Shown: piece after piece, positions 27,663-44,292 of the stretch
Layout: each line of letters begins with the position of its first letter
Position numbering within the stretch: the first letter of the stretch is position 1
Source: a virus
Taxonomy: Duplodnaviria; Caudoviricetes
Direction: 5' to 3' (one strand)
DNA: 59,224 bases
Virus record (IMG/VR): IMGVR_UViG_3300042309_002053
Span: 1-59,224 of that record
Notes under the pieces: generated by a model
The model's input: only the letters and a program-made list of their open reading frames with translations
Told to the model about the DNA's origin: nothing
Databases searched by the model: none
Translations under genes and position numbers: made by a program

Positions 27663-28111
27663 TGTTCTGTAAGTTTCTTAAACTCACCAACGGTGAAAAT
27701 ATAATTGCGACTACGGAAGACGAATGCACAACTTTTAAAGATAAAGAATTTTTGCAAGTAACAGACCCCGTACAGGTTGGTACTATACGGATGCCCAGAG
27801 GTAATATGGTCATTGAGTCATATGTTCTTCAACCCTGGATAAGACTAGCAAAAGAAAATATAGTTAACATTCATGTTCATAATATTGTAGCTACGGTTGA
27901 TCTTCCCGAAGATGCTCAAGCACAATATTATGATTTTATTCAAACGTCAGGTAAGATTAGTTTTACTTCTGGAGATGGCCAAGCCGAAGCAGAAGAAATG
28001 GAAGAGCAGCTTGAGGAGGAACAAAATGATCTCTTAAGCAGTATTTTTGATAGTGATGAAGAGGAAGACAATGGATACACAGCAAGAACCCGTACAAGAA
28101 TTATCCACTGA
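27662..28111 (+). CDS. Conserved T4-like hypothetical protein with acidic tail
   Basis: KLTNGENIIA N-terminus; between uvsW and gp55. Confidence 0.65.
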   Translation: MFCKFLKLTNGENIIATTEDECTTFKDKEFLQVTDPVQVGTIRMPRGNMVIESYVLQPWIRLAKENIVNIHVHNIVATVDLPEDAQAQYYDFIQTSGKISFTSGDGQAEAEEMEEQLEEEQNDLLSSIFDSDEEEDNGYTARTRTRIIH

Positions 28112-28640
28112 GAAGAAACCTTCTCACTATGTAGATAATAAAAAATTTTTTGAAGCTCTGGTTGAATATAAGCAGCAAATAGAGCATGCTAAAGCAAACT
28201 GTCTTCCAAAGCCGAGAGTAAGTGAGTACATAGGAGAATGCTTCCTTAAAATTGCTACTCATTTATCCTACAAGGCTAACTTTATTAACTATACTTTTAA
28301 AGATGATATGATATCTGACGGTATAGAGAACTGCCTGACCGCTGTTGATAAGTTTGACCCTACTAGATCTACTAATCCATTTGCCTACTATACGCAGATA
28401 GTTTTCTTCGCTTTTGTAAGACGAATACAAAAAGAAAAGAAACAACAAGCAACTAAGTACAAGATGATGGAGAATGTAGATATAGATATGCTTATTTCTC
28501 ACTCTCAAGATAATGAAGAGTTTACTAATCAACTTATCGAAATGGTTCGTAAGCAGTACGACCAGATCGACACAGATAAGAAAACCTTACCAGTAAAAAA
28601 GAAGAAAGAAAAACAAGTCGAAGTTGACGACGATCAATAA
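28071..28640 (+). CDS. gp55: Late transcription sigma factor
   Basis: HYVDNKKF, YIGECFLKIA.HLS, DMISDGIENC, NPFAYYTQI..FAF.RRI.KEKKQ; ATG 28071 after GAGG. Confidence 0.93.
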   Translation: MDTQQEPVQELSTEKKPSHYVDNKKFFEALVEYKQQIEHAKANCLPKPRVSEYIGECFLKIATHLSYKANFINYTFKDDMISDGIENCLTAVDKFDPTRSTNPFAYYTQIVFFAFVRRIQKEKKQQATKYKMMENVDIDMLISHSQDNEEFTNQLIEMVRKQYDQIDTDKKTLPVKKKKEKQVEVDDDQ

Positions 28641-28709: not shown

Positions 28710-29573
28710 ATGTCTAAAATTAAAGTATCGGAGTTATTTTACTCCATTCAAGGCGAGGGTCGTTATATGGGCGTACCCTCGGTCTTTCTAAGAACCTTCG
28801 GCTGTAACTTTACCTGTGACGGCTTTGGTATGCCCCCTGGGGAGAAATCAATTGAACGCGATAAAGTTGCTACAAGAGCTGAAGAGTTCAAAACTTATAA
28901 AGATCTTCCTCTTGTATCCACTGGGTGTGATTCTTATGCTTCTTGGGATGTTCGTTTCAAGCATCTTAGCCCTGTTGTGGATACTAACGGCCTTGCCGAT
29001 TCGATTGTGGATTTACTTCCGCACAAGAGGTGGGAAGACGAACATCTTGTAATCACCGGCGGTGAGCCTCTTCTGGGATGGCAACGAGCTTACCCTGATC
29101 TTCTCTCACATGAGAAGATGCTTCCTCTTAAAGAGATCACATTCGAAACTAACGGCACCCAACCGCTATCAAAAGAGTTTCGACACTACTTGCTTGATTG
29201 GACCCTTAGCCCAGAATGGGGAAGACGCGGTTACGATAAGCTAACTTTCTCTGTGTCTGCTAAGCTCTCTGTTTCGGGTGAAAAGTGGGAAGATGCTATT
29301 AAACCAGAAGTAGTTGTTGATTATGAACAGGTAGGTTATACTTACTTGAAGTTTGTTGTAGCTACACCTCAAGATGCTACTGAAGCACAACACGCTGTCG
29401 AAGAGTATCGTAAAGCTGGTTTCAAAGGACCGGTTTATATCATGCCCGTGGGTGGTGTAGAATCTGTATACTCAATGAATAACAAGAACGTAGCATTAAT
29501 GGCTATGAAAAATGGATGGCGGTATTCCGATAGATTACAGGTACCGCTATTTAAAAATGAATGGGGTACCTAA
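28710..29573 (+). CDS. queE: 7-carboxy-7-deazaguanine synthase (radical SAM)
   Basis: ELFYSIQGEG, VFLRTFGCNFTC...CDS, VITGGEPLL, FETNGT, LKFVV. Confidence 0.9.
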   Translation: MSKIKVSELFYSIQGEGRYMGVPSVFLRTFGCNFTCDGFGMPPGEKSIERDKVATRAEEFKTYKDLPLVSTGCDSYASWDVRFKHLSPVVDTNGLADSIVDLLPHKRWEDEHLVITGGEPLLGWQRAYPDLLSHEKMLPLKEITFETNGTQPLSKEFRHYLLDWTLSPEWGRRGYDKLTFSVSAKLSVSGEKWEDAIKPEVVVDYEQVGYTYLKFVVATPQDATEAQHAVEEYRKAGFKGPVYIMPVGGVESVYSMNNKNVALMAMKNGWRYSDRLQVPLFKNEWGT

Positions 29574-30318: not shown

Positions 30319-30996
30319 ATGAGCTTACAAAAAGGAAAGACCGACCCTGAGCTGGGTTATCAGATCGACGAATACCTTAAGGCAAAAGGTGTTCATACCC
30401 CTACAAACATCGATATGCTTCTTCGCAAAGACGAGGGCAAGATCAAAAAGATCGAGAAGCATTTCGCTGCCATTATGGATATTCTTGGCTTGGATCGTAA
30501 CGATGATTCACTTACTGAAACCCCTAAGCGTGTAGCTAAGATGTATGTGAATGAGATTTTCTGGGGCCTAAGACCTGAGAACTTTCCTAAGTGTACCGTT
30601 ATCGAGAATAAGATGGGGTATGACGAGATGGTGATTGAAAAAGACATTACACTAATGTCTAACTGCGAGCATCACTTTGTTACTATCGATGGTAAGGCTC
30701 ACGTAGCTTATATTCCTAAGGGTAAGGTTCTGGGTTTGTCTAAGCTTAATCGTATCGTAGAATACTTTGCGCGTAGACCTCAGGTTCAGGAACGAATTGC
30801 CGAACAGGTGTATCATGCTCTGGTCTATATTCTTGGTACTGAAGATGTGGCAGTGGTTATTGAGGGCGTTCACTACTGTGTTAAGTCGCGTGGTGTGGAA
30901 GATCACAGCTCGTATACTATGACTGCCAAACTAGGTGGCTGCTTTAGAAATGAGCCTGATTGCCGCGCCGAATTTATGTCACTGATTAAGAAATGA
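30319..30996 (+). CDS. folE: GTP cyclohydrolase I
   Basis: TPKRVAKMY, CEHHF, GLSKLNR, RRPQVQER, HYCVKSRGV. Confidence 0.96.
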   Translation: MSLQKGKTDPELGYQIDEYLKAKGVHTPTNIDMLLRKDEGKIKKIEKHFAAIMDILGLDRNDDSLTETPKRVAKMYVNEIFWGLRPENFPKCTVIENKMGYDEMVIEKDITLMSNCEHHFVTIDGKAHVAYIPKGKVLGLSKLNRIVEYFARRPQVQERIAEQVYHALVYILGTEDVAVVIEGVHYCVKSRGVEDHSSYTMTAKLGGCFRNEPDCRAEFMSLIKK

Positions 30997-33373: not shown

Positions 33374-34039
33374 ATGTTTTTCTACCCTACTGTTATTATT
33401 GATGATTTTTTAAAAGATCCTTTAAAGGTTAGAGAATACGCTTTGACTTTAAATTATAGCAAGGGATATAATTATTCGGGTAAGAGAACTGATAATCTAT
33501 TTAATGTAAATACCTATTTTAGTTCTTCTATATGCAATAAAATTTTATACTCGTGTGGAATTCCATTTATAGATTATAAAGCAGAATTGAATTTTCACCT
33601 TACCGGGCAGGAATTTGGAGAATCGGGATGGCCTCATACGGATTTTGACGATCTTAATGATACTAAGTTTGCATGCGTCGTTTATCTCAACACCCAGCCT
33701 AACGGGTTAGATAGCGGTACAAGTATTTTCAGGGTGAAGGGCTTCAAAAATATAGACGAGACCGTACCGGTGATGCAGACAACATTTAAAACGGGGCAGG
33801 ATAACTTAGAAGAAAAAAACAGTGCTATAGACAATTACGAAGAGACAGTTAGAGTAGGGGGAATATTTAATCGAATGATTGCATATGACTCTCGTCGTCC
33901 TCACTGTGGTAATGGGTACTTTGGAGACACCTCAGATAATCAACGACTTACTCTTTTAGCTTTTTTTAAAGAAATTGATTTATGTACCCCTTATAAGTTT
34001 ACCCCTATTGTTTACGCTGATATGGTTAGTAAAGTATGA
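33374..34039 (+). CDS. 2OG-Fe(II) oxygenase-like protein
   Basis: IIDDFLKDP..VREYAL, YSGKRT, WPHTD, VVYLN, FNRMIAYD...HC, RLT. Confidence 0.75.
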   Translation: MFFYPTVIIDDFLKDPLKVREYALTLNYSKGYNYSGKRTDNLFNVNTYFSSSICNKILYSCGIPFIDYKAELNFHLTGQEFGESGWPHTDFDDLNDTKFACVVYLNTQPNGLDSGTSIFRVKGFKNIDETVPVMQTTFKTGQDNLEEKNSAIDNYEETVRVGGIFNRMIAYDSRRPHCGNGYFGDTSDNQRLTLLAFFKEIDLCTPYKFTPIVYADMVSKV

Positions 34040-34578
34040 TATGGATTGCATTTTTTAGTCAAACAGGGTCTGAAATAGTTGAACTAAGCAAGCAGCTTGG
34101 TCGAAAACCTGATCTCATTGTTACGAATAACTTTGAAGAAAAAATAAAATTCCACCCTGGTATCCGAGAACTTGGCGTTACAATTCAATCTGCCAGGCAT
34201 GATATGCTTATGGAATACTTCCGTAAGCAGTTAATTTTGAAACCAGAAGATGTACTCATTACCCTCCACGGTTACTTGAGAATATTACCTCCCGATATTT
34301 GTGAGATGTATGAAATCTATAACGGTCATCCCGGGGCGATAGATCTCTACCCGGAATTAAAAGGTAAAGACCCGCAAGAAAAAGTATGGAATGATAATGC
34401 CAAATATCCTATAATAGGAAGTGTCGTGCATGAGTGTACGGCTGAGCTTGACGCAGGGGCAATTGTAAAAACTGTTCATTTTAGAAACAGAAGTTACTCC
34501 AAAGATGAAGTCTACAGCACTCTTAAAATGGCATCTCTTTCTGCCTGGAATTTCTTCTTGAAGGAAAAAGGTTTATGA
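34036..34578 (+). CDS. PurN-like formyltransferase (candidate DpdN, preQ1 formyltransferase)
   Basis: FFSQTGS, LHGYLRILP, NGHPG, GSVVH...LDAG match 10-formyl-THF formyltransferase motifs; between dpdA and queF. Confidence 0.8.
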   Translation: MIWIAFFSQTGSEIVELSKQLGRKPDLIVTNNFEEKIKFHPGIRELGVTIQSARHDMLMEYFRKQLILKPEDVLITLHGYLRILPPDICEMYEIYNGHPGAIDLYPELKGKDPQEKVWNDNAKYPIIGSVVHECTAELDAGAIVKTVHFRNRSYSKDEVYSTLKMASLSAWNFFLKEKGL

Positions 34579-35108
34579 GGATTGGTATTACTGGAGCGCA
34601 GTCGGTAGGTAAGACTACCTTACTTAACGCATTGCGTAGTGAAAAATTTTTTAAAGACTACGCTATTTGTGATGAAGTGACACGTCGCGTTCGTTCATAT
34701 GGTATACCGATTAACGAACAAGGTACTAGTGTTACTCAGCGTCTGATTATGAACGAGCATATCGTTAATATCTTCATGCATGAAAAGATGTTAACTGATC
34801 GTACCGCTCTTGACGGGTTAGTCTATACACTCTATCTGCATAAGAAGGGCAACATCGACTCTAAGACGCTTCTCTATGTTGAGGATGTCTTTAAACGTCT
34901 GATTAAGAGATATGATCATATTTTTTATATTGAGCCTGAGTTCGATATAGTAGATGATGGTGAGAGAAGCATCGACAAAGAGTTTAGAGATGAAATTGTT
35001 GAACTCTTCGACTCTGTAATGAAGCGGTATAAAATTAGTACTATAAAAATTAAAGGCTCAGTTAGAGATCGAGTCAATATGGTAATTGAAATTTTAGAAG
35101 GAAGATAA
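34575..35108 (+). CDS. P-loop NMP/dNMP kinase-like protein (AAA_28/NadR-like)
   Basis: GAQSVGKTT, DRTALD..VY, YDHIFY, DDGER. Confidence 0.75.
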   Translation: MRIGITGAQSVGKTTLLNALRSEKFFKDYAICDEVTRRVRSYGIPINEQGTSVTQRLIMNEHIVNIFMHEKMLTDRTALDGLVYTLYLHKKGNIDSKTLLYVEDVFKRLIKRYDHIFYIEPEFDIVDDGERSIDKEFRDEIVELFDSVMKRYKISTIKIKGSVRDRVNMVIEILEGR

Positions 35109-36037
35109 TGTCTGACAATCAAAAACAATTAAATGAGCTGGTATCGGTTCATCTAGGTAAGGCTGGTGATGGTACTGTGGTTAAGCCTTATGTAACGCCA
35201 GATGAGGTTGACTCTAGTCTGCTGGTTTCCGTACCTAGGCATTTGAACCGTACTGCATACGGTATCGACGATAATGCGCTTAACTTTGTCGGTGTTGATG
35301 CGTGGAACGGGTATGAATTCTCTACTTTGCTTGAGAATGGTTTTCCTGTATCGGGTTGGTTGAAGTTTACCTACCCAGCCAATTCTCCTAATATTGTTGA
35401 GTCTAAGTCTGTAAAACTGTATTTAAATTCTTATAATATGGCTCGACTCATTAAATCTACTGATGATGTCTGGCAGATTGAAGAGCAGATTACTCGAGAT
35501 CTTCGTAAGGCTGTAGGTAGTGAAGATGTAGAAGTATTCCTTCGTTGGGGTGATATTGATACCGTTAAGCCTATCATCGGTGACTTCGTATCTCTAGAGC
35601 ATTACTGTAACATTCAAAAGATGCAGTTTAATGACTATAATGAATACGCTGGTATTCTAGAGGTAGTTCCTTCTATTGGTCGTTATGAAAGATGGCGTTC
35701 ATACTCTCTGCGCTCTAATTGTCGAGTAACTAATCAGCCTGACTGGGGCGACGTTTTTGTTCATATTAAGGGTGATAAAGCTGTAACACCTGAGTCGCTT
35801 TTGAAGTATATTGTCAGTATGCGTAAGGAAAATCATTTCCATGAAGAAATTGCCGAATGTATCTACACCCGGTTATACGATCTCTTACAACCTGAAGAAC
35901 TATTCGTGGCATGTCTGTATACCCGGAGAGGGGGTATCGACATCAATCCCGTTAGAGCTTCTGATGTACGAACCCTCTACAAGTACGGGGCTATTTGCGA
36001 CGTTACTAACTTCTGCACGAAGACTCCAAGACAATGA
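35108..36037 (+). CDS. queF: NADPH-dependent 7-cyano-7-deazaguanine reductase, bimodular type
   Basis: IVESKSVKLYLNS, LRSNCRVTNQPDWG, HFHEE, YTRRGGIDINP. Confidence 0.93.
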   Translation: MSDNQKQLNELVSVHLGKAGDGTVVKPYVTPDEVDSSLLVSVPRHLNRTAYGIDDNALNFVGVDAWNGYEFSTLLENGFPVSGWLKFTYPANSPNIVESKSVKLYLNSYNMARLIKSTDDVWQIEEQITRDLRKAVGSEDVEVFLRWGDIDTVKPIIGDFVSLEHYCNIQKMQFNDYNEYAGILEVVPSIGRYERWRSYSLRSNCRVTNQPDWGDVFVHIKGDKAVTPESLLKYIVSMRKENHFHEEIAECIYTRLYDLLQPEELFVACLYTRRGGIDINPVRASDVRTLYKYGAICDVTNFCTKTPRQ

Positions 36038-36246
36038 TCAATTACAACGCATCTCCTGACCCTAATGTTGACGAGATCTGTAATGAGTTTTGTGCTCGAG
36101 CCGAACACGGCTTTAAAAAATATGGAGTAACCACCACGCGTACAGATCTTGATCTTGACCAATGGCTCCAGCATCTAAAAGAAGAACTGATGGATGCTGT
36201 AGTATATCTACATCGTATTCAAAAGGAAAGAAATGAAAGCAAGTGA
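36034..36246 (+). CDS. Small all-alpha MazG-like/NTP-pyrophosphatase-like protein
   Basis: G.KKYG...WLQHLKEELMDAVVY (EExxD helix); overlaps both queF and queC. Confidence 0.5.
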   Translation: MINYNASPDPNVDEICNEFCARAEHGFKKYGVTTTRTDLDLDQWLQHLKEELMDAVVYLHRIQKERNESK

Positions 36247-36994
36247 AGCACTAGCATTGCTACCTGAGACAAAAGGCTGCGTAGTTATTCTCTCTGGTGG
36301 TATGGATAGTACCATCACCATGCGTCTGGCTGTAGAGAAGTATGGCCGAGAGAATGTTTCCGCTCTGACCTTCTTTTACGGTCAGAAGCAGAAACGTGAA
36401 ATCGAAATGGCTAGGATGTCTACTAACCTGCTGGGTGTAAAGCATAAGGTTATTGATGCTTCGTTTCTTGGTGATATCTCTAAAGGCTTTTCTGCAAATG
36501 TTGACACCGATATGGAAATGCCTACGATTAGGGATGTGCTAGGTGATCCTAGACCTAAGACATATGTACCTAATCGTAATATGATTTTGATGTCTATTGC
36601 AGCTGCTTTTGCTGAAACTCAAAACGTCGATACTATCTTATGCGGTCTGCAGGTACATGATGAATACGGTTATCATGACACGACTCAGCGATGGGTAGAT
36701 AAGGTTAACGACCTCCTTTCTGAAAATCGTATAATTAAAATTAAACTGGTCGCGCCGTTTAGTAAACTGAGTAAGTTTGATGAGTTACATATCCTTCGGG
36801 AACTTGATGGTAATTTAAACTTGACTATGTTTACACTTACATGTTATAATCCTGATAGTGAAGGCAACAGCTGCGGTAACTGCCCTTCATGCTCGGAAAG
36901 AATTGCTAACTTTGCAAAGGTTGGTGAGAAAGATCCGATTGCGTATCGCTCTAAACTAGACTGGGATCATCTAATTGATAGGATGAAAGTATAA
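36233..36994 (+). CDS. queC: 7-cyano-7-deazaguanine synthase
   Basis: LSGGMDS, YGQ, TYVPNRN, TCY...CGNCPSC zinc motif. Confidence 0.93.
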   Translation: MKASEALALLPETKGCVVILSGGMDSTITMRLAVEKYGRENVSALTFFYGQKQKREIEMARMSTNLLGVKHKVIDASFLGDISKGFSANVDTDMEMPTIRDVLGDPRPKTYVPNRNMILMSIAAAFAETQNVDTILCGLQVHDEYGYHDTTQRWVDKVNDLLSENRIIKIKLVAPFSKLSKFDELHILRELDGNLNLTMFTLTCYNPDSEGNSCGNCPSCSERIANFAKVGEKDPIAYRSKLDWDHLIDRMKV

Positions 36995-37614
36995 TGTGTG
37001 CTATTTCAGGCTCTTTCAGTAAGAGCAAGCTTCTTGAGCTTTACCGTCTAAACGCATATCGCGGGGAGATGAATCATTCTCTAACTTCCTTCGAATATGA
37101 TAATGACGGTAGACTTAGACTAGGTGTCTTGTTCCAAGACGATGGACCCCTTGATACGGAAGTACTAGATTCTCTTCATGAGAAAGATGATAAGTATTTT
37201 TTAGCTCACTCTCAAGCTCCTACCACAGACACTAATAGTGTGCACCCAGCTGCGTACGGTGACGCCATGCTGTGGCATAATGGTATTATCAAACAAAAGA
37301 GTATGTCGCCAGGTACCTGGGATACCGCATGGCTTCTAGAACAAATTCTAAATTACGGTTGGTCGTCCCTATCGAGGGTAGATGGTACGTTTGCCTGTGT
37401 AATGTTTTGGGGTAATAACCTATACTGTTTTAGAAACGAAATTTCACCGTTATTTGTGGATAAAGAACTTAACCTTTCATCTACCAAAGCAGAAGGGTTT
37501 GAGTCGCTTAAACCTAATGTTGTTCATAAAATGAATTTAGAATTCCGCACTTTGACCCCAGTTGCCTATTTCGATACTTTTGAGAACCCTTATTATTTTG
37601 GAGATGCAGCGTAA
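36994..37614 (+). CDS. Stand-alone class II (Ntn) glutamine amidotransferase-like protein
   Basis: N-terminal Cys (MCAISG), LWHNGII, WDT, GTFA, FRNEISPL; TAATG coupling to queC. Confidence 0.75.
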   Translation: MCAISGSFSKSKLLELYRLNAYRGEMNHSLTSFEYDNDGRLRLGVLFQDDGPLDTEVLDSLHEKDDKYFLAHSQAPTTDTNSVHPAAYGDAMLWHNGIIKQKSMSPGTWDTAWLLEQILNYGWSSLSRVDGTFACVMFWGNNLYCFRNEISPLFVDKELNLSSTKAEGFESLKPNVVHKMNLEFRTLTPVAYFDTFENPYYFGDAA

Positions 37615-38138
37615 TGATACCAATGCCAATGCTACCTGAATTTGCAATGAAACATATCGCAAGCGAAAATAGTAGATCAAAACTTACTAATATACTAGAA
37701 GGCGATATACAGCCTAATGCGGTAGATTTGAGACTAGGTAAAGTTTTTAGGATACTCGACAATGATTTCTTCATCTCTAACGATCATAAGGTACATAGAG
37801 GTTCAGAAGAGATTCAACCTAACGATGAAGGGTATTATGTACTAAAGCCGGGCTCATATGAAATCGTTATGGAGAATATTATCCATGTTGGTGAAAATGA
37901 AGCCGGGTGGGTCATTACACGTAGCACATTGAACCGTAATGGGTGTTTTATTACCTCCGGTCTTTATGACTCAGGCTATCATGGCGTTATGGCTGGAGTG
38001 CTACACGTAACAACAGGTACCGCAAGAATTAAGCAGGGTACCCGTGTCGGTCAATACTTGAGCTTCAGTGCTCAGTCGCTTAAAATGTATGACGGTGATT
38101 ACGGTGTTGGTAAGTCACACGATAAAAAATATACATAA
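37614..38138 (+). CDS. Trimeric dUTPase / dCTP deaminase family protein
   Basis: QPNAVDLRL, RSTLNRNG, YDSGYHG, GTRVGQ, YDGDY. Confidence 0.82.
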   Translation: MIPMPMLPEFAMKHIASENSRSKLTNILEGDIQPNAVDLRLGKVFRILDNDFFISNDHKVHRGSEEIQPNDEGYYVLKPGSYEIVMENIIHVGENEAGWVITRSTLNRNGCFITSGLYDSGYHGVMAGVLHVTTGTARIKQGTRVGQYLSFSAQSLKMYDGDYGVGKSHDKKYT

Positions 38139-38142
38139 TAAT

Positions 38143-38201
38143 AGCGGTCTGTTGGCGTCACCCCGCTTTATAAACTCTGCCGCCTATGTCTAACATAGGA
38201 G
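38143..38201 (+). ncRNA. Candidate preQ1-I-like riboswitch / structured leader of queD
   Basis: Stem AGCGG/CCGCT with loop TCTGTTGGCGTCACC, tail TTATAAAC, then hairpin CCTATG-TCTAA-CATAGG covering the AGGAG SD. Confidence 0.5.
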
Positions 38202-38206
38202 AAAAA

Positions 38207-38704
38207 ATGCAACCTGTAGTATATAAGTACGTTTCGACTAAAGAGTATCACGATGAGTTCCCTTGCGCTTATCGTCAATGGCGAGCTGATAGCCATTGTA
38301 ATCTGATTCACGGATACTCTTTCTCGATGAAGTTTTACTTCGGTACTAATAATCTTGATGTTCGTAATTGGGTAGCTGATTATGGCGGTCTTAAGGAACT
38401 AAAGAACGTTCTTAAAGATCAGTTTGATCATACGCTACTTGTAGCTGAAGATGATCCTGAACTTGAAACGTTTAAACTTCTGCAAGAAAAGAAACTAGCC
38501 AAGCTTACCATTCTGCCACGTCTCGGTTGTGAGAGTCTAGCTGATCAACTTTATAAGTATGTTAACGGGGTATACATTCCTGACTTCTGGGGACCCGGAG
38601 AAGCAGATCGTCTGTGGTGCTTCCGCATAGAAGTAAGAGAGACACAAAGCAATATGGCATGGCGAGAAGGCCACCGGGAATGGGGTGAAGATCTATTCGC
38701 ATGA
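38207..38704 (+). CDS. queD: 6-carboxy-tetrahydropterin synthase (atypical)
   Basis: CAYRQ..SHC.LIHGYS, WVADYGGLKELK..L...FDHTLLV, EVRET..N.A; ATG 38207 after AGGAG. Confidence 0.82.
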   Translation: MQPVVYKYVSTKEYHDEFPCAYRQWRADSHCNLIHGYSFSMKFYFGTNNLDVRNWVADYGGLKELKNVLKDQFDHTLLVAEDDPELETFKLLQEKKLAKLTILPRLGCESLADQLYKYVNGVYIPDFWGPGEADRLWCFRIEVRETQSNMAWREGHREWGEDLFA

Positions 38705-39870
38705 GTAAACAAGTCGACGTTATTGGAGCTGGCATCACCGGGCTGATGTCAGCTTATTTCTTGTCTAAGAAGGGATATCAGGTTTCTGTATTTGAACGGG
38801 AACCGTATCCTGCTATGCAATGTTCTTATGCCAACGGTGGCCAGATTTCAGTTTGCAATTCAGAAACTTGGAATAACTGGCCTACCGTGTGGAAGGGTAC
38901 CAAGTGGTTATTAAAGCAAGATGCTCCTCTTCTTATTAGACCATATCCGTCTTTCCACAAAATTAAATGGATGGCAGGTTTCCTTAAACATACATTGACG
39001 GGGAGCCATATTAATAACACTATCGAAACTATTAGACTGGGTATAGAAAGTAGAAACCTATACAATCAAATAGATAGTGAATATAATCTCGGTCCTCTAT
39101 ATGATAGAGTTGATAAGGGTATGATGCACGTTCATACCAACGAAAAAGACTACCAGCATGCAGCAAGTATGCAGGAGCTCTTTACGGCTTATGGTCTCGA
39201 TTGGGAAATGATCAGTGCTGAAGAAGCAAGAAGAATAGAGCCTGCACTTAAAAGCTTTAAAGATGTATTAGGTGGTACGTATGTAAGAACTGATTGGTCA
39301 GGTGATATACACAAGTACTGCAAGCAAATTAAAAACATTCTAAAAGATAGGGGCGTGCTCTTTTACTTCGGCAGCTCTTTTGATATGGATAGAATTGATC
39401 GCCCTACAGTAATTGCTACGGGTCATGAAATGTATAACCATGCCAGAGAGCTGGGAGATGAATTTAACATTTACCCGGTTAAAGGTTATTCAGTTACTAT
39501 TAGCTTGAATGACGAACGAAGCAAGCAGGCCGCCCCTACAGTTTCTTTACTAGACAACAATAAAAAGATTGTTGCGTCAAGAATGGGAGATAGACTAAGA
39601 GTTGCAGGCACCGCCGAGCTGGATGGTACTAATTTAGATATTAGACAGGAAAGAATCGAGCCACTGTTACAATGGGTGAGAGAAAACTTTAAAGACGTAA
39701 ACACCGAAGACTACAGCACCTGGGCATGTTTACGGCCTATGAACTCTAACATGATGCCTATTGTACAAAAGTCAAAAAGCAACGATAATGTATTTTATAA
39801 TGGGGGGCATGGGCACCTGGGTTGGACTTTGGGTGCTGTAACTGGAAAGATGGTTGCTGATCTAATATGA
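38701..39870 (+). CDS. FAD-dependent D-amino acid dehydrogenase-like (DadA/DAO family)
   Basis: VIGAGITG, SYANGGQIS, YPVKGYS, RLRVAGTAE, WACLRPM, GHGHLGWT. Confidence 0.88.
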   Translation: MSKQVDVIGAGITGLMSAYFLSKKGYQVSVFEREPYPAMQCSYANGGQISVCNSETWNNWPTVWKGTKWLLKQDAPLLIRPYPSFHKIKWMAGFLKHTLTGSHINNTIETIRLGIESRNLYNQIDSEYNLGPLYDRVDKGMMHVHTNEKDYQHAASMQELFTAYGLDWEMISAEEARRIEPALKSFKDVLGGTYVRTDWSGDIHKYCKQIKNILKDRGVLFYFGSSFDMDRIDRPTVIATGHEMYNHARELGDEFNIYPVKGYSVTISLNDERSKQAAPTVSLLDNNKKIVASRMGDRLRVAGTAELDGTNLDIRQERIEPLLQWVRENFKDVNTEDYSTWACLRPMNSNMMPIVQKSKSNDNVFYNGGHGHLGWTLGAVTGKMVADLI

Positions 39871-43668: not shown

Positions 43669-44292
43669 TTAATCATGCATCTTTGGACTCTGACCTGGTA
43701 TTAAACCTAGATCATCATCCATCATTGACATGTTACCCATTGGCATTTGATTGCCAAAAGAAGACTGCATTGGCTGGGGAGCCTGGAAGCTAGATTGCAT
43801 TCCCCCTCCGAAGCTCGGCTGCTGCATCGGCTGCATTGGTCTGTGCTGCATAGGCATGCTCTGATTATAAGAAGGCTGCTGCATTCCAAAACCGTTGCCG
43901 TTATTCATACCAGCGGCTTTAGCGCCAGCCATTGCAGCTTCTTTACCAGTTCCAGCAAGCATTATACCTGATAGTGTACCGCATAAGAACGTAGCAACTG
44001 GAATAATAAGTTCAAAAAACTTTTGATCTATAGGGCTAATAGCGTTTAAAGGCTGAGTAACAAACATAATGCTATAGAGTACTGTAAATACAATACCTAT
44101 AAGCGTGAATGCCAAACAGCAGCCAATAAAAAACTTAAGACGAACCATCAGCTCGTTTTCAGTATAGCGCTCTCCAGGTTTAGAAACCTTTTCAGCTCTA
44201 TCTTGATGTCTTTCTTCTTTTTTCTCTTCCATTTTAACCTCTTCAACTTTCACTTCTTTAGGGGTTGGTGTAAATAATTCTTTCAAGCTCAT
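43669..44292 (-). CDS. Two-TM membrane protein with Gln/Met/Pro-rich tail
   Basis: FFIGCCLAFTLIGIVFTVLYSIMF and LIIPVATFLCGTLSGIMLAG hydrophobic segments. Confidence 0.75.
   Translation of the reverse strand: MSLKELFTPTPKEVKVEEVKMEEKKEERHQDRAEKVSKPGERYTENELMVRLKFFIGCCLAFTLIGIVFTVLYSIMFVTQPLNAISPIDQKFFELIIPVATFLCGTLSGIMLAGTGKEAAMAGAKAAGMNNGNGFGMQQPSYNQSMPMQHRPMQPMQQPSFGGGMQSSFQAPQPMQSSFGNQMPMGNMSMMDDDLGLIPGQSPKMHD

Follow-up and report, generated by a model that had tools for sequence, protein, structure and literature searches.

A preQ1-I-like pseudoknot in the leaders of phage queD-like genes, probably a translational ON riboswitch

The segment between positions 38143 and 38184 of the phage DNA analysed here is predicted, on comparative evidence, to form an H-type pseudoknot with two covarying helices, which is specific to phage queD-like genes and is found once per contig. 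We consider it fairly probable that this segment serves as the aptamer of a conserved RNA element which lies at the 5' end of the queD-like mRNA and acts on it in cis, and that it works as a small-molecule, preQ1-I-like, translational ON riboswitch. The helices P1 and P2 seem to be among the better-supported small RNA structures that can be obtained from sequence alone. In addition, a riboswitch is generally recognised by a covarying and conserved aptamer, located in the leader of genes of one pathway and followed by variable expression platforms, and this is the pattern that the leaders appear to present.

The window, that is, the whole stretch of DNA that was analysed, is an entire IMG/VR virus record of 59,224 bases, with a completeness estimate of 36%. 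It derives from a T4-like myophage with a T4-type structural module. Its capsid protein shows 65-66% identity to those of Pelagibacter phage Mosig and Methylophilales phage Melnitz, which are the nearest cultured relatives by capsid, and near-identical DNA is present in lake and freshwater metagenomes from a dozen studies. A previous sequence-only reading of this DNA had placed the element in the queD leader of a phage with a 7-deazaguanine pathway. This siting was borne out: QueE-like, GTP cyclohydrolase I, QueF, QueC, and QueD-like proteins are all encoded in the window (Table 1). SbcD/SbcC-like genes are also located in the pathway region.

The QueD-like protein has CxxxHGY where the canonical motif is CxxxHGH. 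The start of the queD-like gene at the ATG of position 38207 agrees with the Shine-Dalgarno (SD) sequence and with the N-termini of the homologues; a longer open reading frame from the ATG at 38186 has no SD sequence and was rejected. The gap between the stop codon of the dCTP-deaminase-like (DCD-like) gene (38138) and the ATG of queD is 68 nt in length, houses the element, and is one of 14 gaps longer than 40 nt in the window. The overlap of start and stop codons means that the gene of the DAO-family oxidoreductase may be translationally coupled to the regulated queD gene. Of the 67 loci tagged as bearing the motif, 10 have a DAO homologue immediately 3' of queD. A frequent arrangement in the loci with the motif is FolE, the element, QueD, in some cases DAO, and then QueE; in this common order, the element is adjoined on one side by FolE, the maker of the QueD substrate, and on the other side by QueD.

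The aptamer is on the + strand and is about 42 nt in length, with two helices (P1 and P2) and three loops (L1 to L3). The 5-bp stem P1, the loop that begins with U and ends with UCACC, and the tail TTATAAAC, all of which the sequence-only reading had described, were confirmed in the sequence, together with the hairpin CCTATG/CATAGG that covers the GG of the AGGAG SD sequence. The family consensus of L3 is xUAxAxAYUCUGC (13 nt). When the leader of the window was folded as a single sequence, the minimum free energy (MFE) was -15.9 kcal/mol with a z value of -1.00, and 30 of 200 shuffled sequences were equally stable. The fold of the window alone is no better than chance; P1 and the SD hairpin are nonetheless contained in it. 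The element is judged to be real because the comparative evidence is decisive, the single-sequence fold being unremarkable.

Table 1. Coordinates of the queD leader features and of the neighbouring genes in the window
Feature	Position	Strand	Remarks
gp55-like late sigma factor	28047-28640		
QueE-like	28710-29573		
GTP cyclohydrolase I	30319-30996		
Formyltransferase-domain protein	34036-34578		
QueF	35108-36037		
QueC	36233-36994		
206-aa protein	36994-37614		without Pfam match
dCTP-deaminase-like (DCD-like) protein	37614-38138		
TATACATA, 7/8 match to T4-type late promoter core TATAAATA	38130..38137	+	consensus match
P1 5' strand AGCGG	38143..38147	+	pairs with 38163-67
L1 UCUGUU	38148..38153	+	family pattern N-C-U, then variable stretch
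P2 5' strand GGCG	38154..38157	+	pairs with 38181-84
L2 UCACC	38158..38162	+	family forms UCAYC or UCAUUC; last C invariant
P1 3' strand CCGCU	38163..38167	+	pairs with AGCGG
L3 UUAUAAACUCUGC, 13 nt	38168..38180	+	A at 3, 5, 7 and U-C-U-G-C at 9-13 invariant or nearly so
P2 3' strand CGCC	38181..38184	+	last two C's common to SD hairpin
SD-sequestering hairpin CCUAUG-UCUAA-CAUAGG, class A platform	38183..38199	+	strands 38183-88 / 38194-99; in MFE and centroid structures
Shine-Dalgarno AGGAG	38197..38201	+	5 nt ahead of ATG 38207
queD-like gene, PTPS / T-fold, 165 aa	38207..38704	+	PF01242, E 6.5e-16; phrog_2389
FAD-dependent oxidoreductase, DAO family	38701..39870	+	ATG overlaps queD stop (ATGA)

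IMG/VR contains at least 594 stretches encoding relatives of the window QueD, of which the best 80 (83-91% identical) were taken with their flanks. The 44 distinct aptamers from these QueD-selected loci, which were chosen without reference to RNA, were aligned by MAFFT (alignment A1). P1 is paired in all of the 220 cells of A1. Three of its five pairs are changed on both sides, in 13 such cells; none of 500 shuffles reached the covariation score, and controls with a slid partner strand were paired in 43-62% of the cells. The middle pair is changed from C-G to U-A or A-U, and changes from G-C to C-G and from A-U to U-A are also observed, as in the variants AGUGG/CCACU, AGAGG/CCUCU, ACCGG/CCGGU, UGCGG/CCGCA, and AUCGG/CCGAU. 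On a tree of 125 QueD-like proteins the middle pair shows at least 28 changes among C-G, A-U, and U-A and is never unpaired. This count of changes is given beside the cell counts, as cells are not events; it is rough, since the tree was a quick FastTree one and the leaders may recombine. Covariation in the upstream regions of phage queD genes had been suggested as a check on the sequence-only reading, and a conserved element with compensatory changes was found in these regions.

The invariant positions of A1 are the two loop-proximal G-C pairs of P1, the unpaired second base of L1 (C10) and last base of L2 (C23), each of which is C in 44 of 44 sequences, and the L3 columns A31, A33, A35, T37, C38, and G40, which correspond to the adenines at 3, 5, and 7 and to U, C, and G of UCUGC. 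Among 108 sequences, the first base of L1 is U in 47, C in 32, and A in 29, the third base is U in 107, and L3 has a length of 13 nt in 107. The total length of the P1 loop is 13-19 nt. It should be mentioned that a second set of loci was picked by a pattern that fixes bases of L2 and L3; in this set, only P1, the P2 strands, and the flanks are unbiased.

P2 is formed between the 4-5 bases directly ahead of L2 and the 4-5 bases directly after the invariant UCUGC. MAFFT gave no common register for the 4-bp and 5-bp forms, and they were aligned separately. Overall, 84-91% of the cells are paired, and eight of the nine pairs across the two classes are changed on both sides. In the 5-bp class (60 distinct sequences), 83.7% of 300 cells are paired and all five pairs are double-changed (51 cells); the covariation score was reached in 0 of 500 shuffles, and the slid controls were 19-49% paired. 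In the 4-bp class (40 sequences including the window), the corresponding values are 91.3% of 160 cells, three of four pairs, and 23 cells, and again no shuffle out of 500 reached the score. The 4-bp helices include GGCG/CGCC (the window), GGCA/UGCC, GGUG/CACC, GGGC/GUCC, GGCU/AGCC, and AUGC/GCAU, and the 5-bp helices include GACAU/AUGUC, GGCAU/AUGCC, GACGC/GUGUC, GACUU/AAGUC, and GACAA/UUGUC. When the loops and the 3' strands were re-dealt among 109 aptamers (a set that includes one false positive, L001), the mean contiguous P2 decreased from 4.0 to 2.9 bp, and none of 2000 permutations reached the real value.

The pairing of GGCG with CGCC, which the sequence-only reading had offered as one means of disturbing the SD hairpin, is thereby seen to be the window copy of a conserved and covarying pseudoknot helix. 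The other pairing offered there, UGUUGG with CUAACA, does form 6 bp in the window but is not conserved: at least 5 bp are possible in 9 of the 62 class A leaders, compared with 6.65 expected from shuffles. An alternative register of P2 is observed in the 4-bp class, where GGCR pairs with the invariant UGC of L3 at a slide of -3 (88.1% paired, no covariation), but only 22.3% of the cells are paired at this slide in the 5-bp class. This register, which speaks against the ON wiring discussed below, would permit P2-like pairing with the hairpin intact.

A covariance model (R1) was built from A1. In the window, it finds a single copy with a score of 61.1 bits (E 2e-20), the next best match having 11.3 bits. 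Each of five contigs with lengths of 157-210 kb likewise contains a single strong match. Among the QueD-selected loci (the best 80 of at least 594), the element is located before the queD-like gene in 66, with scores of 29.5-67 bits. Thirteen of these 80 loci are without an R1 match; where they were inspected, queD abuts the preceding gene. The contig of one locus (L057) ends 46 nt ahead of queD. A rearranged partial copy is present in one locus (L045), and a second, tail-less P1 hairpin in another (L013).

IMG/VR was also scanned independently of protein with the DNA pattern TCAYCCCNNWNWANANAYTCTGC. At least 120 stretches were matched, and 80 of them were taken. R1 matches 78 of these 80 pattern-picked viral loci (from at least 120) with 33-66 bits, and the other two are chance matches. 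The next open reading frame matches the window QueD at 29-88% identity in 77 of the 78 loci, and the 78th is a mis-called reading frame. This means that the element travels with divergent queD genes; in other words, it seems to accompany very divergent QueD-like genes. As judged from these contigs, the element appears to be kept by well over a hundred uncultured phages and to be widespread in freshwater phage contigs.

The same pattern gave at least 121 matches in 185,579 prokaryotic species genomes, and 80 of these matches were scored with R1. One true copy, with 39.7 bits, was found among them. It is located on a 5.5-kb contig of a Bacteroidetes MAG (L264), which encodes a QueD 79% identical to that of the window and is most likely phage DNA. 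The remaining matches among these 80 of at least 121 scored 19.3 bits or less and include no true copy. In cultured phages, no R1 match above 11.6 bits was found in six queD loci, and none above 12.6 bits in the eight whole genomes of ACP17, X1, R5C, Phosso, PhiXhv-15, Mosig, Melnitz, and S-H38. BLASTN against GenBank phages found nothing with the 2.3-kb locus and only chance matches (E values of 0.2 or more) with two leaders. No account of a queD-leader riboswitch or a phage 7-deazaguanine riboswitch was found in the literature searched, which did not extend to subscription journals and bioRxiv supplements, and the word riboswitch is absent from the main text of the principal papers on phage 7-deazaguanines. 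A note on phage Seurat cites a preQ1 review, in its reference list only.

PMC10622847, in which types I-III are distinguished, describes the preQ1-I riboswitch as an H-type pseudoknot with a P1 of 5-6 bp, a specificity cytidine in L2, and an A-rich L3. The present element resembles preQ1-I (RF00522) in being an H-type pseudoknot of about 42 nt with a 5-bp P1 whose last two pairs are G-C, an L2 whose 3'-terminal base, next to P1, is always C (44/44), conserved adenines in L3, and a short P2 formed from the loop and the 3' tail. It also resembles preQ1-I in its tie to 7-deazaguanine biosynthesis genes and in its presumed control at the ribosome-binding site (RBS). However, L3 of the element is 13 nt in length and ends in an added invariant UCUGC. 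The fixed U directly after P1, which in L1 of preQ1-I contacts the ligand, is lacking. Furthermore, P2 shares its 3' bases with the anti-SD or anti-AUG strand instead of with the SD sequence itself, so that in the models ligand binding should activate. Within the material examined, the element is almost only in phage contigs.

An Rfam preQ1 search had been named in the sequence-only reading as a further check, and it did not place the element in that family. When the window was searched at E values up to 10, RF00522 gave no match at 38143-38184; its sole match in the window is at 44099-44143, with 10.6 bits against a gathering cut-off of 39 bits. None of the 4227 Rfam families was found at the element when the whole window was searched at gathering thresholds. 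Searches of a 251-nt and a 65-nt stretch at E values up to 10 gave only a chance match to a lncRNA (14.1 bits) and no PreQ1 family, and no family matched 20 related loci at gathering. Because of the missing RF00522 match, the 13-nt L3, the absence of a fixed U, and the anti-RBS P2 strand, the element is placed outside the Rfam PreQ1 family; by analogy, it would work like a preQ1-I aptamer and is not a catalogued member. The sequence-only reading therefore stands for the preQ1-I-like layout (P1 with 5 bp, an invariant C as the last loop base, adenines in the tail, and the pseudoknot helix P2), for the queD leader, and for the competing helices described below, and falls for the Rfam PreQ1 membership and the UGUUGG/CUAACA pairing.

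Other known systems share some of these properties. The preQ1-II and preQ1-III riboswitches, described as larger folds in a part of PMC11602147, are pseudoknotted sensors of the same pathway that act on translation, the role of the present element being assigned by analogy; their Rfam models gave no match to the element at any threshold used. Glutamine riboswitches are carried by pelagimyophage-like phages, according to the section of PMC9004378 on this subject, in which riboswitches are regarded as a rare feature in phages. The queD element is likewise carried by T4-like aquatic myophages. However, the glutamine riboswitches differ in fold, ligand, and target gene. They also belong to a class known from bacteria, while for the queD element no bacterial counterpart was seen among the genomes scanned. 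The leader of T4 gene 32 has a 5' H-type pseudoknot that mediates translational control and is bound by the gene's own protein product. Unlike the queD element, it has no link to a metabolic pathway.

The expression platforms of 125 distinct leaders fall into class A (62, including the window), class B (25), and others (38). In class A, the GG of the SD sequence is paired within the hairpin CCUAUG...CAUAGG, and in class B, the AUG is covered by the helix (U/C)CAUC...GAUGG. The sequestering helix of either design takes its first two bases from the end of the P2 3' strand. These bases in the window are C38183 and C38184, which are common to the P2 3' strand and the SD hairpin. The sequence-only reading had proposed two mutually exclusive folds, and P2 and the SD hairpin do compete for these two C's. 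This overlap between the P2 3' strand and the anti-RBS helix, present in two different platform designs, suggests an ON switch. In terms of the models, the wiring suggests ON logic rather than the OFF logic of the known preQ1 riboswitches. The class A hairpin is conserved in 57 platforms with none of its five pairs changed on both sides, and none of the eight pairs of the class B helix is changed in this way; the ON wiring is therefore based on conservation and energy models only.

In 95 of the 125 leaders, the nested MFE structure pairs the RBS window with two or more bases from the 3' strand of P2, compared with 40.9 expected for shuffled platforms. When the aptamer was held folded (P1 and P2), the modelled mean accessibility of the RBS in the 125 leaders increased from 0.46 to 0.61, with a rise of more than 0.1 in 83 leaders and a fall in 3. 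The SD hairpin of the window has a free energy of -6.2 kcal/mol alone and -0.3 kcal/mol without the shared CC/GG pairs, and P2 as a duplex has about -5 kcal/mol. The modelled effect in the window is small: the unpaired probability changes from 0.35 to 0.43 for the SD sequence and from 0.60 to 0.91 for the AUG. In the model, the freed SD sequence can pair weakly with codons 3-5, and its GG mostly stays paired. This possibility of pairing with codons 3-5 seems to be the cause of the small gain.

Signals that might start transcription were found close to the aptamer. The sequence TATACATA ends 5 nt ahead of P1, overlaps the stop codon of the DCD-like gene, and is a possible transcription start signal. 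T4-late-like cores of at least 7/8 are located within 30 nt of P1 in 40 of the 125 unique upstream 60-mers (shuffle mean 6.7, maximum 14); the late consensus TATAAAT is as given in the relevant part of PMC9004378. The sigma70-like site near P1 in the window is weak (GTCACA-17-AATAAT, 9/12). Sigma70-like promoters of at least 9/12 end 0-20 nt ahead of P1, mostly 6-10 nt, in 35 of the 125 (shuffle mean 7.9, maximum 16), and 68 of the 125 upstream regions have a promoter of one or the other type. This placement, which is one of consensus matching and not of mapping, fits a leader in which the aptamer would be the first structured element. In addition, 51 of 60 class A leaders have a TTTACA/TATACA-N17-TGnTAnAAT string across L3 and the hairpin loop (shuffle mean 2.7). 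Outside class A, such a promoter is present in only 9 of 65 leaders, and the window is without it (8/12, no TG). A leader peptide or an N-terminal extension of QueD was excluded: no reading frame could be kept through loops of 13-19 nt and a variable distance to the AUG, and the base changes restore pairing instead of being synonymous.

The invariant C of L2 stands at the place of the specificity cytidine of preQ1-I, and for this reason a ligand with a guanine-like face is proposed. The terminal C of L2 would read the Watson-Crick face of such a ligand, and the adenines of L3 would line the minor groove of P1. A guanine-like face is common to all 7-deazaguanines of the pathway and to the pterins H2NTP and CPH4. 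Candidate ligands would thus be preQ1, preQ0, CDG, or a pterin, namely the substrate (H2NTP) or the product (CPH4) of QueD. In the ligand-free state, the shared C's would join the hairpin masking the GG of the SD sequence (class A) or the helix covering the AUG (class B). Binding of the ligand would lock P2 and free the RBS of queD, and translation would be turned on; the overlapping downstream genes would probably be freed along with queD. Given the order FolE-element-QueD and the proposed ON wiring, activation of a feed-forward kind by the pterin substrate would be as plausible as control by a preQ-type base. We know of no precedent for feed-forward or positive control of queD among preQ1 riboswitches. 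A 7-deazapurine or pterin ligand and the ON logic are both reasoned guesses.

A protein-binding translational operator is a rather unlikely alternative to this riboswitch. In this case, the pseudoknot would be recognised by a phage or host protein; the QueD-like protein might fill this role, as might a phage repressor of translation with general action. Invariant unpaired bases beside covarying helices suit a protein site and a ligand pocket equally, and the sole constantly present partner of the element is the QueD-like gene. Phages of the T4 morphotype use leader pseudoknots and operators in autogenous control, for example in genes 32 and 43. However, the element is found with QueD proteins down to 29% identity and with varied neighbours, no common partner other than QueD being evident, and a small conserved aptamer on interchangeable platforms is the usual pattern of a riboswitch. 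To our knowledge, T-fold enzymes are not RNA binders. It is less probable still that the element is a diverged preQ1-I member which binds preQ1 or preQ0 and represses queD by feedback, although all the preQ1 riboswitches known to us repress. Since QueF is the last step of the pathway in the window, preQ1 would be made, and the alternative P2 register with the invariant UGC leaves the SD hairpin intact. The overall layout and the invariant GG...C-CC core also match the account of preQ1-I in PMC10622847. Against this, RF00522 has no match at the locus, the 13-nt L3 contains UCUGC as an additional invariant block, P2 shares its 3' bases with the anti-RBS strand and not with the SD sequence, and the alternative register is absent from the 5-bp class.

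We give an equally low probability to a structural element that acts independently of any ligand, that is, a stabiliser at the 5' terminus of the mRNA, a tuner or timer of translation, or an RNA thermometer. The location at or near the predicted 5' end and the small modelled accessibility change in the window would agree with such a role, but a stabiliser does not need about a dozen invariant unpaired bases in L1-L3, and the element is strictly tied to one gene family while other genes on the same contigs are without it. Conservation at the level of DNA, as a terminator plus promoter rather than as RNA structure, is very improbable and was already disfavoured. It has in its favour the promoter string across L3 and the hairpin loop of class A leaders. 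However, the compensatory changes in P1 and P2 have no explanation at the DNA level, the aptamer is equally conserved in the leaders without that promoter, and the window lacks the string. No terminator-like site was called at P1 in the scan of the window, and the reading of P1 as a terminator was dropped.

For the preferred reading, a translational ON riboswitch, a more specific scheme may tentatively be put forward. The element might represent a new, phage-confined riboswitch class, in which a preQ1-I-like pseudoknot would sense a guanine-faced 7-deazaguanine intermediate, possibly the pterin substrate of QueD in preference to preQ1. By turning translation on, it would gate the first committed step of DNA hypermodification. 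In class A leaders, the sigma70 promoter embedded in the platform might let early transcripts escape this control, late ones being gated by the ligand.

The riboswitches known to us in phages are copies of bacterial classes. The present element seems to be confined to phages, and the one gene to which it is tied belongs to the pathway by which guanine in phage DNA is replaced as a means of evading restriction. It looks like a new relative of the preQ1 riboswitch, found in phages only, and it probably switches on a DNA-base modification enzyme. Its size of about 42 nt should make binding and structure studies easy, and the natural compensatory variants are ready controls. If the element binds a metabolite, it would be a new aptamer, small and akin to the smallest riboswitch known, and the first activating relative of the preQ1 switches, and it would give a first view of how phages regulate the hypermodification of their DNA.

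The QueD-like protein encoded at 38207-38704 carries CNLIHGY in its signature region. The same substitution, CxxxHGY in place of the canonical QueD signature CxxxHGH, is shared by every one of the 125 QueD-like proteins encoded downstream of distinct leaders, and six cultured phages (ACP17, X1, R5C, Phosso, Me-ZS1 and PhiXhv-15) have it in their homologues as well. The sole PDB match, the CPH4 synthase 7v0f, has IHGH at the equivalent place. Because of this difference from the canonical signature, CPH4-synthase activity of the CxxxHGY clade is only assumed here.

A gene for a formyltransferase N-domain protein is located two genes 5′ of the bimodular QueF gene. According to PMC10516641, these two genes form the set proposed for formyl-preQ1 DNA (DpdN). 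Of the 56 ORFs scanned in the window, which represents about one third of the genome, none was recognised as a DpdA/TGT homologue. On the 3′ side of queD, the start of the DAO-family gene overlaps the queD stop codon (ATGA), and its product has no PHROG match. Of the 67 loci tagged as motif-bearing, ten have a DAO homologue immediately after queD, and in six of these ten queE comes next. A terminator-like hairpin lies just 3′ of queD, within 55 nt of the start of the DAO gene. It overlaps the codons of the Rossmann motif, and one such site was found against 0.6 expected; this hairpin may be a coincidence.

Features of the window and of the related viral loci (bits for the element copy are scores of R1, the covariance model built from the aptamer alignment)
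Feature	Location	Detail
Formyltransferase N-domain protein	window 34036-34578	PF00551, 26.9 bits vs cut-off 26.1
Bimodular QueF	window 35108-36037	
Second P2 register	window 38154-38157 with 38178-38181	
DAO-family FAD-dependent oxidoreductase	window 38701-39870	PF01266, E 7e-56
Terminator-like hairpin	window 38726-38755	12 pairs, then ATTTCTTGTC
Embedded sigma70 promoter, example	L006:2945-2990	class A leader
P1 hairpin with family loop and sigma70-like promoter	L013:2217-2242	
Second, degenerate element copy	L102:189-237	30.2 bits

In the related locus L102, the P1 of the degenerate copy is ACCAG/CUGGU and its L3 ends with UUCGC. This copy is upstream of a 309-aa ORF whose class I SAM-methyltransferase signatures are weak (the best is PF03602, E 2e-5) and which stops just 5′ of the normal queD element; this is the sole non-queD association observed for the element. 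The hairpin in L013, another related locus, has neither L3 nor the P2 3′ strand and probably represents a partial duplication of the element. It precedes an unrelated ORF and lies approximately 640 nt 5′ of the true element.

The loop GGCR of the 4-bp P2 class has a second possible partner, formed by the invariant U-G-C of L3 and the next base (slide -3), with which 88.1% of cells are paired. No covariation was observed for this second register in the class; the register could be relevant to the switch or could be a by-product of composition.

The leaders of class A, in which a hairpin masks the SD, contain a further feature. Of 60 class A leaders, 51 (shuffle mean, 2.7) have a near-consensus extended -10 sigma70 promoter that spans the start of L3 and the loop of the SD hairpin. 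Its -35 part is TTTACA or TATACA at the start of L3, and its -10 part, TGnTATAAT or TAAAAT, is in the hairpin loop after a spacer of 17-18 nt; the TG is present in all 51. This promoter is missing at window 38167-38196 (8/12 match, no TG), where the hairpin loop is shortened. Transcripts from the embedded promoter would begin within the 3′ arm of the SD hairpin, and would carry neither the aptamer nor the anti-SD strand.

The 60 nt 5′ of P1 were also surveyed in the 125 distinct leaders (window site, 38130-38137). Sigma70-like promoters were found there in 6/62 class A leaders, compared with 27/63 others (Fisher p 3e-5, kinship ignored). TAAATA within 30 nt of P1 was found in 41/62 and 21/63, respectively (p 3e-4, kinship again ignored). 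The type of upstream promoter is associated with the platform class across these leaders, which suggests that class A phages produce early unregulated and late regulated transcripts.
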